Part shown: positions 11,247 through 11,658 of the stretch, in pieces
Position numbering within the stretch: position 1 is the first letter of the stretch
How the letters are laid out: each line of letters opens with the position of its first letter
IMG/VR virus record: IMGVR_UViG_2657244961_000003
Location: 1-15,054 of that record
Length of the DNA stretch: 15,054 bases
Origin: a virus
Lineage: Duplodnaviria; Heunggongvirae; Uroviricota; Caudoviricetes
Direction: 5' to 3' (one strand)
Notes under the pieces: generated by a model
What the model was told of the DNA's origin: nothing
Database searches by the model: none
The model's input: the letters and a program-made list of their open reading frames with translations, nothing else
Position numbers and translations under genes: made by a program

Positions 11247-11309
11247 ATGTCTGAACAACAAGAGGATAGCCGCAAGCAGTTGCTGTTGCAAGTGTGCGGA
11301 GCTTCGTAA
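11247..11309 (+). CDS. Candidate 20-codon leader-type small ORF (MSEQQEDSRKQLLLQVCGAS)
   Basis: GAGGG about 8 nt upstream of the ATG; stop overlaps the start of the next small ORF (TAATG). Prediction from sequence only. Confidence 0.2.
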   Translation: MSEQQEDSRKQLLLQVCGAS

Positions 11310-11425
11310 TGACTCTTCAAAAAGCTTGCAAGTGGGTTGTGACCAACATCATTGTTCCTGTCATCATCGGAGCTTCAAGTTCTGTGTTGGCATCAGTGAT
11401 TGCCTCACTTCTCCACATTGCATAA
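11309..11425 (+). CDS. Candidate 38-aa hydrophobic small protein (MTLQKACKWVVTNIIVPVIIGASSSVLASVIASLLHIA), possible single-pass membrane peptide
   Basis: Overlapping TAATG with the upstream short ORF; strongly hydrophobic; followed about 55 nt downstream by an intrinsic terminator. Not in the ORF track (below its length cutoff). Confidence 0.3.
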   Translation: MTLQKACKWVVTNIIVPVIIGASSSVLASVIASLLHIA

Positions 11426-11479
11426 CAACATTGAAGGGCGTTAGTTCGCAGTGTAACAGCAGCGCGTTGCGCCCGAACA

Positions 11480-11514
11480 GGCCACAGGGTAAAACCTGTG
11501 GCCTTTTTCGTTTT
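11480..11514 (+). terminator. Rho-independent terminator (9-bp GC-rich stem, 6-nt loop, T5 run)
   Basis: ggccacagg gtaaaa cctgtggcc tttttcgtttt. Confidence 0.5.
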
Positions 11515-11551
11515 AGCCAGCCACAAATCCACATTGAAAAACGCCTTATAC

Positions 11552-11583
11552 AAAAAAACCTGCCAGCTAACTGGCAGGTTTCT
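11552..11583. terminator. Bidirectional terminator hairpin (8-bp stem, 4-nt loop) flanked by A7 upstream and TTTCT downstream
   Basis: aaaaaaa cctgccag ctaa ctggcagg tttct; on the minus strand the stem is followed by a 7-T run, so termination is predicted to be stronger for leftward transcription. Confidence 0.5.
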
Positions 11584-11658
11584 GAGCAGATCGACCAACC
11601 CGATCTGGATCGGACTGGAAAAATTTGCTCTAATAAATTTCGTTTTCTAAGTGCAAAG

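Follow-up and report, generated by a model that had tools for sequence, protein, structure and literature searches.

The stretch of DNA analysed here, in the following called the window, comprises 15,054 nucleotides (nt; positions 1 to 15,054) of the IMG/VR virus record IMGVR_UViG_2657244961_000003 and is part of a P1-type phage-plasmid. At 11101-11551 on the plus strand, it carries a compact unit of two small overlapping open reading frames (ORFs), an intrinsic terminator and, opposite the 5' untranslated region (UTR), a predicted antisense RNA gene. Judged from its sequence, this unit is very likely a plasmid-borne relative of the Escherichia coli ldr/rdl (long direct repeat, LDR) type I toxin-antitoxin systems.

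An earlier note on this stretch had described a 20-codon ORF with a GAGGG Shine-Dalgarno (SD) sequence, a TAATG overlap with a 38-codon hydrophobic ORF, and two hairpins, and all of these are present as described. The leader ORF (11247-11309, plus strand, MSEQQEDSRKQLLLQVCGAS) has its SD at 11234-11238, 8 nt 5' of the ATG, and its stop codon TAA (11307-11309) overlaps the ATG (11309-11311) of the ORF in the toxin position (11309-11425, plus strand, MTLQKACKWVVTNIIVPVIIGASSSVLASVIASLLHIA), which has an SD of its own (GGAG, 11298-11301) and starts at the offset that is constant within the family. Both ORFs are intact in all copies that are free of disruption by an insertion sequence (IS), and it is homology, rather than ORF statistics, that lifts the pair beyond chance.

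Architecture of the unit and kinship with ldr/rdl

The toxin mRNA is predicted to start at about 11123, downstream of a putative -10 box (TACGAT, 11111-11116, plus strand) that aligns with the TAGAAT/TAGGAT of all LDR units, and to end at the intrinsic terminator found by a terminator scan at 11479-11514 (plus strand; 10-bp stem 11479-11504, loop and UUUUUCGUUUU; -24 kcal/mol). With the ends that we infer (11123-11512, ~390 nt), this RNA would fold at -165 kcal/mol with a z score of -7.3, and the K-12 ldrD mRNA (z -8.1) gives the same architecture, including the long-range closing helix. A 5'-terminal hairpin (11125-11139, plus strand, CCCUG-UUUUU-CAGGG) is present in the minimum free energy (MFE) fold and lies at the same place in all family members, with arm sequences that differ yet compensate. 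It is followed by a 5'-UTR box (11142-11151, plus strand, GGCGCAACGU), whose predicted pairing with 11464-11473 closes the whole mRNA, while a predicted anti-translation-initiation element in the 3' UTR (11439-11448, plus strand) pairs in the MFE fold with the toxin SD/AUG region at 11297-11311. Consequently, the unpaired probability calculated for the toxin AUG is 0.013 in the full-length RNA vs. 0.59-0.66 without the 3' UTR; SD and AUG of the leader are moderately accessible (0.35-0.47). Independent folds of 53 distinct family members contained both long-range features in most cases and in every peptide class.

The predicted gene of the Rdl-like antisense (antitoxin) RNA (11256->11195, minus strand, 62 nt) overlaps the 5' UTR divergently. 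Its ends were placed by a simple rule, in which the RNA begins 7 nt past the -10 box, at the transcription start site (TSS), and extends to where the U-run stops; this rule reproduces the RefSeq coordinates of rdlD in K-12 exactly. The RNA is predicted to fold (-22 kcal/mol) into a free, single-stranded 5' tail, a hairpin with stem arms at about 11201-11209/11230-11239 and an inner GUUGC/GCAAC stem, and a U-run (11200-11195). Its complementarity to the leader includes the SD and AUG without mismatch, and the leader ATG at 11247 lies 9 nt inside the complementary region; family-wide, the leader start codon, mostly TTG, is found 9-11 nt within this region. The leader AUG is itself part of a small hairpin with an apical loop (11251-11257) complementary to the antisense RNA at the latter's free 5' end, and this loop is a plausible nucleation site for pairing. 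Relative to the toxin ATG, the antisense gene lies 53-114 nt upstream in the window and 49-112 nt upstream in K-12, without overlapping the toxin ORF.

The predicted promoter of this RNA (11263-11291, minus strand) consists of a -35 box TTGCAA (11291-11286), a 17-nt spacer, the -10 box TATCCT (11268-11263) and a further 6 nt to the TSS at G11256. Its geometry, TTGCAA-17-TATCCT-6-G, is close to TTGTAA-17-TATTCT-6-G of K-12 rdlD, and ATAGCCGC as well as TTGCAA belong to the most conserved alignment columns of the family. Both promoters of the locus were assigned by positional homology; a generic promoter scan flags neither of them, with the Rdl promoter staying under its threshold at 8/12 matches.

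The kinship is further supported by direct comparison with LDR-D of K-12, to which a weak but full-length match to the Rfam family rdlD (RF01813; 11195-11256, minus strand, 21.1 bits, E 0.08-0.16) gave reason. Collinear blastn segments were obtained for the terminator (E 9e-8) and for the 5' UTR/Rdl region (E 0.002), and the shared collinear blocks comprise the 5'-UTR box GAGGCGCAA(C/T)GTT..GCGGGGG, the Rdl hairpin, the ATAGCCGC..TTGCAA box and, as the best-conserved block, the terminator (84% over 49 nt). Units on a Lelliottia plasmid and on a ColE1-type plasmid of Pantoea are intermediates that link the window and K-12 (E 1e-13 to 1e-26). A covariance model that we built from 25 Rdl sequences, excluding the window, Pantoea and metagenome classes, and calibrated only roughly, gave a single match in the 15-kb window (11197-11256, minus strand, 30.9 bits, E ~1e-8), equivalent matches in the Pantoea and metagenome units and no match in P7. 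The outer helix of Rdl is 100% paired across 30 distinct sequences, and the one difference in the window is a compensated C-G to U-A exchange. Other weak Rfam matches (sok, ffh sRNA, psRNA14, snoRNAs and others) were set aside as generic hairpins or chance matches. A fragment resembling the Rdl hairpin alone (80% over 66 nt; 12.6 bits with our model) was seen at 696-765 of the Salmonella Newport plasmid NZ_CP077703; it has neither a 5'-UTR box nor a toxin ORF and may be either an orphaned leftover or a terminator with no relation to Rdl.

To survey the family, the 5'-UTR box was searched in species-representative genomes, viral contigs and metagenomes, and the matches were filtered for the remaining architecture. 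This yielded about 70 LDR units with a common architecture across Enterobacterales (Escherichia, Salmonella, Citrobacter, Klebsiella, Kluyvera, Atlantibacter, Pseudocitrobacter and others), frequently in tandem arrays with ~480 bp spacing and with a near-constant offset of the toxin ATG. Many matches to the GC-rich pattern in non-enterobacterial metagenome-assembled genomes (MAGs) lacked the rest of the architecture and were removed as chance. In a 12-way alignment, the window has the -10 box, 5' hairpin, 5'-UTR box, Rdl hairpin, Rdl promoter, toxin start and terminator; hence the locus is homologous to ldr/rdl, with all RNA elements and both small ORFs conserved.

The chromosomal ldrD/rdlD and ldrA-C/rdlA-C long direct repeats of E. 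coli K-12 were reportedly characterized as type I toxin-antitoxin systems by Kawano and colleagues in 2002. The unit described here is like them in its size of ~450-500 bp, in the order and spacing of all regulatory elements, and in an antisense RNA (62 nt in the window, 64 nt in K-12) that overlaps the 5' UTR divergently and not the toxin ORF. Equally shared are the tail-hairpin-U-run shape and promoter geometry of this RNA, the leader start inside the antisense target, the offset of the toxin ATG, the homologous terminator and the predicted closed, inert mRNA fold. Unlike the chromosomal tandem arrays, it occurs as a single copy on phage-plasmids and small plasmids, and its leader has an ATG and a strong SD instead of TTG.

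The 20-codon ORF appears, by its position, to be the equivalent of the ldrX leader. Such a leader, translationally coupled to the toxin and blocked by Rdl, was proposed by Gerdes and Wagner by analogy with mok/hok/sok (PMC4147584), and the coupling model is still unproven (PMC4147584; PMC8594479). In units of the LdrA/B/C type and the Lelliottia type, the start codon opens a 20-codon leader, which at its end overlaps the toxin start by ATGA, and the window is the clearest version of this arrangement, with its ATG start, strong SD, 20 codons and TAATG overlap. A G/A polymorphism at 11294, synonymous in the leader frame, changes a GTG into ATG in some copies (three, including NZ_CP122494); this codon precedes the toxin ATG by 15 nt in the same frame, making a 43-aa form (MRSFVMTLQ...) possible.

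A separate peptide class on the shared RNA scaffold

The 38-aa peptide is strongly hydrophobic, with a grand average of hydropathy (GRAVY) of 1.43 and a best 19-residue Kyte-Doolittle window of 2.28. Its diverged homolog from Pantoea, MMFVNACKWIGNIILQIAIGVAGSVLASVILAHFHLA (37 aa), shares 19/37 residues at a nucleotide identity of 59%, and the resulting ratio of nonsynonymous to synonymous substitution rates (dN/dS) of ~0.27 reveals purifying selection on the peptide frame. Among the P1-type copies, the toxin ORF shows one amino acid exchange (V10I) and two synonymous changes only, and these three substitutions are too few for an informative dN/dS. A third member of the class, MKLVNACKWFMTHIVIPFGVGTATSVAGSMILAHFHLA (38 aa), is encoded on a metagenomic ColE1-type plasmid.

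A motif of the form P/D/S/T-x-x-x-G within the transmembrane helix is a feature of the Fst/Ldr superfamily (PMC7472228), and the likening of the VPVIIG core to Ldr/Fst in the earlier note is borne out insofar as P17-V-I-I-G21 occupies the same ungapped positions as P17...G21 of LdrD. The residues M1, T2, L3, P17, V18, I19, G21 and S25 are common to the peptide and the Ldr consensus, so that the two agree in their MT start as well. The metagenomic homolog keeps the motif (P17-F-G-V-G21), while the Pantoea homolog reads Q-I-A-I-G at this position; the motif is thus kept in 2/3 class members. The suspicion of an Ldr-related type I toxin-like locus thus holds at the level of DNA and RNA, where homology to ldr/rdl is found, and does not extend to recognition of the peptide by the Pfam family Ldr_toxin.

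Several observations weigh against the assignment to ldr/rdl or against a functional copy in the window. The 38-aa peptide and its Pantoea and metagenome homologs gave no match to Ldr_toxin (PF13940) at E values up to 10, with LdrD scoring 93.7 bits as positive control; BLASTP of the peptide against LdrD returned nothing, it was unrecognised by NCBIfam, and with a hidden Markov model built here from canonical Ldr sequences it reached 4.2 bits, a value equalled or exceeded by 158/5000 shuffles (empirical p ~0.03). The conserved Trp followed by charged C-terminal residues that marks Fst/Ldr peptides (PMC2887945; PMC7472228) is absent: the C-terminus reads ...ASLLHIA with a net charge of 0 over the last 8 residues, and the sole Trp, W9, lies near the N-terminus. 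At 38 aa vs. 35 aa and ~20% identity to the K-12 Ldr peptides, it also lacks the WHD motif, the C-terminal Trp and the KRK tail, and its positive charges are exclusively N-terminal, the reverse of LdrD. At the RNA level, the 21.1-bit Rfam match does not reach the rdlD gathering score of 50, and the covariation support for the Rdl helix appears thin because a single pair is compensated and the remaining pairs are invariant. Moreover, the native -35 box of the toxin promoter (TTGCCA, 17-nt spacer), present in the four IS1-free copies compared (NZ_CP122494 among them), is lost in the window at the junction 11100/11101, and an IS of ~1.1-1.2 kb with an integrase-core transposase splits the unit at about 11291 in four P1-type plasmids (NZ_CP030784 and three others). 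Finally, chromosomal Ldr-RdlD was reported not to bring about post-segregational killing (Coray et al. 2017, PMC5367252), so that the addiction role favoured below would be deduced from location alone.

Beyond these comparisons, searches in Pfam, NCBIfam, PHROGs and PADLOC gave no meaningful match for either the peptide or the leader. A search of 5.8 billion proteins with the 43-aa GTG-extended form as query found just one over-extended E. coli ORF, and tblastn with the peptide returned only near-identical P1-type copies from plasmids and nothing from the phage collection, in which blastn of the insert gave no match either. The peptide is encoded in 21 plasmids of PLSDB and annotated in none of them. 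Overall, it is not demonstrably an Ldr protein and, by sequence, forms a separate class.

The RNA scaffold appears to be the conserved entity, and the peptides are diverse, as LDR scaffolds also carry classes of 30 aa and 34 aa that remain unseen by Pfam Ldr_toxin. The 30-aa class (MTF.EALLLAVVTS.VGP..HFFKF) was observed on five true LDR scaffolds and the 34-aa class, beginning with MQHVLMAMLQDL, on two; their hosts are Lelliottia, Kluyvera, Atlantibacter and an unclassified enterobacterial MAG, in some cases with tandem arrays. Peptide-based searches will therefore undercount such systems.

Carriers of the peptide class are so far all mobile, comprising 21 P1-type plasmids, P1-type contigs from IMG/VR and metagenomes, and two ColE1-type plasmids. 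In the latter, which are the only carriers outside the P1 type, RNAI (305-406 in one plasmid, 61-163 in the other; Rfam 96-106 bits) precedes the unit by 300-400 nt, so that the latter adjoins the replication control region. Earlier accounts described Ldr as "found on no mobile elements" (PMC5367252) and as lacking homologs on plasmids (PMC2887945), and in every record examined (a set that did not extend to T1TAdb) the unit is unannotated, falling below the thresholds of Pfam, NCBIfam and Rfam. What seems new is thus the combination of the ldr/rdl RNA machinery with a different toxin class and a habitat on mobile elements. The significance is modest, in that published surveys placed the Ldr family on chromosomes only and this family would now be seen to move on mobile elements.

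Insertion into the P1 backbone, IS events and possible role

Comparison of the IS1-free plasmid NZ_CP122494 of E. coli a15 with P7 revealed a 494-bp insertion, corresponding to window 11058-11551, which replaces 16 bp at the extreme 3' end of ant; of this insertion, the window retains 451 bp (11101-11551; megablast/blastn boundaries vs. NZ_CP122494 and P7). P1-type phage-plasmids with the insertion occur in E. coli, E. albertii and Salmonella. The segment 11101-11551 is found at >=80% query coverage in nine of the P1-type plasmids from complete E. coli genomes and in 17 PLSDB plasmids, mostly of E. albertii, and the region of interest is 100% identical to the E. coli plasmid pE2 p1 (NZ_CP104510). 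The IS1 copy of the window (insA/insB, 10333-11100, plus strand; identified by its ORFs and by the PGAP annotation of the identical pE2 region) has replaced ~3 kb of sequence of the NZ_CP122494 type, among it c4, icd and ant, as well as 43 bp at the start of the insertion, and its right end is separated from the toxin -10 box by 10 nt.

When window 10178-11100 is set against 3000-6000 of NZ_CP122494, the missing ~3 kb comprise two genes, one coding for a DUF5384 protein and the other hypothetical, and the entire immI module (c4 antisense RNA, icd and ant), and IS1 plus 155 bp of other origin stand in their place. In pE2 p1, two IS1 copies flank a phytase-like esterase gene at that spot, and for this reason the window looks like an IS1-IS1 recombinant or single-IS1 version.

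Does the unit of this element still work? As IS1 replaced the -35 box, toxin mRNA may be reduced or IS1-driven in the window. The IS at about 11291 in the four other plasmids lies between the leader ORF/Rdl promoter and the toxin SD and severs the toxin ORF from its 5' UTR; with the IS1 junction counted in, toxin expression would have been lowered by IS elements on two independent occasions, and individual copies may therefore be silent. A silenced or decaying relic, in which only the Rdl-like RNA is made as an orphan antitoxin and the peptide is not expressed, is a serious if rather unlikely alternative. It draws on the poor -35 sequence that is all the replacement offers at 16-18 nt spacing from the -10 box, and on the independent insertions elsewhere, as if loss of toxin expression were tolerated or favoured. 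Set against this, both ORFs and everything from the -10 box through the terminator are intact (99-100% identical to the IS1-free copies), and the mRNA could still be made by read-out from IS1, whose orientation is the same, or from a hybrid promoter. In any case, this alternative bears on the activity of the copy in the window and not on the identity of the locus.

For an active ldr/rdl-type unit, we propose the following mode of action. The toxin mRNA of ~390 nt (about 11123-11512) would be stable and translationally inert owing to its 5' hairpin cap, the end-closing helix and the sequestered toxin SD/AUG. Toxin synthesis would then depend on ribosomes that translate the 20-codon leader through the inhibitory helix and terminate on the toxin ATG (TAATG), resulting in translational coupling. 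The constitutive 62-nt Rdl-like RNA would block translation of the leader and thereby switch off that of the toxin, and its pairing with the mRNA probably triggers cleavage by RNase III. If the element were lost or Rdl synthesis dropped, the antisense RNA would disappear before the stable mRNA, which would then give rise to the 38-aa membrane peptide and thereby to arrest or killing of the cell. The most likely role is therefore stabilisation of, or addiction to, a plasmid or phage-plasmid.

A similar leader-coupled logic was proposed for both hok/mok/sok and ldrX (PMC4147584), and the organisational similarity of Ldr and Hok is remarked upon in T1TAdb (PMC8594479). Like hok/sok/mok of plasmid R1, the plasmid-borne unit would feature a stable, folded and inert mRNA closed between its 5' and 3' ends, a toxin coupled to an overlapping leader, and a short, unstable antisense RNA directed at the leader start. 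There is, by contrast, no sequence relationship to hok/sok and no Hok-like protein of ~50 aa in the unit: Pfam Hok_Gef gave no match, and the Rfam sok match (15.4 vs. 59 bits) is at chance level and on the sense strand, i.e., the wrong one for an antitoxin. In hok, processing of the mRNA 3' end is essential for activation. The unit also resembles Fst/RNAII of the par locus of pAD1 in its small hydrophobic single-helix peptide with PxxxG within the helix, and plasmid-borne Fst/Ldr members act in plasmid stabilisation (PMC7472228). It differs from Fst in the position of the antisense RNA, which in Fst is convergent at the 3' end, and in the missing Trp and charged C-terminus.

This last difference also feeds an alternative that we regard as improbable, namely that the peptide is a non-toxic small membrane protein within an LDR scaffold, active e.g., in superinfection exclusion, lysis timing or the modulation of host membrane proteins. 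The class is unlike canonical Ldr (no Trp/basic C-terminus, reversed charge, no profile match), the scaffold carries several unrelated-looking peptide classes, and the unit has the immunity module (ant) on one side and the lytic-replicon module (kilA-repL) on the other. Yet the full repression apparatus, with antisense RNA, sequestered start and leader coupling, is conserved as is typical of harmful products; the same class occurs on ColE1-type plasmids of 3-4.5 kb that have no phage functions; and the PxxxG core of the Fst/Ldr toxins is retained in most of the class.

More speculatively, and with a slightly smaller chance still, the LDR unit could be viewed as a modular RNA "expression cage", a single scaffold into which unrelated hydrophobic peptides (at least four classes) have been repeatedly swapped, and the P1 copy could perhaps be wired into the lysis-lysogeny switch. 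The P1-borne unit lies between ant and the kilA-repL lytic replicon, and no terminator follows ant; read-through from the derepressed immI operon might thus run into the Rdl promoter and set the toxin free upon induction or upon infection by a competing phage. If true, this would amount to an addiction, abortive-infection or exclusion function specific to phage-plasmids. Under the ldr/rdl-type addiction role that we favour, the unit would be a probable addiction module added to phage-plasmids, which often carry resistance genes. An annotated type I toxin gene of the hokD type was observed downstream of repL in a related P1-type plasmid (NZ_CP020936, 8763-8918), and hence phage-plasmids of this type can hold more than one type I toxin-antitoxin system.

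Second hairpin, long ORFs and neighbouring features

The second hairpin (11556-11577) belongs to the P1/P7 backbone and not to the locus. Its U-run is on the minus strand only, and it folds better leftward than rightward (-25.4 vs. -18.1 kcal/mol), just as the earlier note had it. The same note had read the two hairpins as tandem terminators, but they do not serve one gene, as only the first belongs to the unit; it had also envisaged a short convergent antisense RNA at the second, an idea that lost its support because more than 500 P1-type plasmids from complete E. coli genomes share only window 11552-11720, including this hairpin, without the toxin unit; the Rdl-type gene lies at the opposite, 5' end. 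An arrangement as in Gram-positive Fst-type loci, which use 3'-convergent antisense RNAs (PMC2887945), with leftward transcription that terminates at or near the second hairpin and yields an RNA repressing the toxin mRNA through overlap with its 3' end, would suit the leftward polarity of the hairpin. We hold it to be very improbable, given that such an RNA would stop 130 nt short of the toxin ORF, that the promoter scan found no leftward promoter-like site between the two hairpins, and that the 5' end has a well-supported antisense gene of the Rdl type.

In P7, a gap of 6 nt separates the stop codon of ant from the counterpart of this hairpin, which is followed by the C1 operator, the promoter P53 and kilA. 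A promoter-like site on the minus strand (11765-11737, TCGACA-17-TATATT with TG extension, 10/12 matches) is located inside the 5' end of kilA, ~180 nt to the right of the hairpin, and this spacing would fit the antisense RNA P53as. P53as reportedly controls the P1 lytic replicon, a finding ascribed to Heinrich and colleagues in 1995, whose study PMC9948254 cites. The hairpin is probably the terminator of this leftward RNA and/or of ant.

The long ORFs called by gene finders, the 175-aa plus-strand frame (11164-11691) and a minus-strand "hypothetical protein" of 93-132 aa, can practically be dismissed as real genes. In their favour, both are open in the window, the minus-strand ORF is annotated by PGAP in three plasmids, and the region is overlapped by one database protein. 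Against them, both run through two stable hairpins and through the homologous RNA elements, which are non-coding, both vary in length among copies >98% identical (161, 97 or 29 aa for the former, e.g., by an additional C at 11446 in E. albertii plasmids, and 56 to 116 aa for the latter, with the small ORFs intact), and both are missing from the units of Pantoea, Lelliottia and K-12. The doubts raised earlier about the 175-aa ORF were thus justified, and gene-finder calls in this region should be treated with caution.

The remainder of the window is in keeping with its P1-type origin. Tail and baseplate proteins and a Sit-like transglycosylase of 1130 aa are encoded on the minus strand at 1432-10125, as seen from ORFs and annotation. 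To the right of the unit, the C1 operator (11624-11640) precedes the plus-strand genes for KilA (266 aa, 11710-12510) and RepL (281 aa, 12540-13385). Just downstream of the mapped -35 signal of P53 (X15638), a 5-nt polymorphism was observed at 11613-11617, where GACTG and AGTCA, which are reverse complements, alternate; it looks like a tiny inversion.

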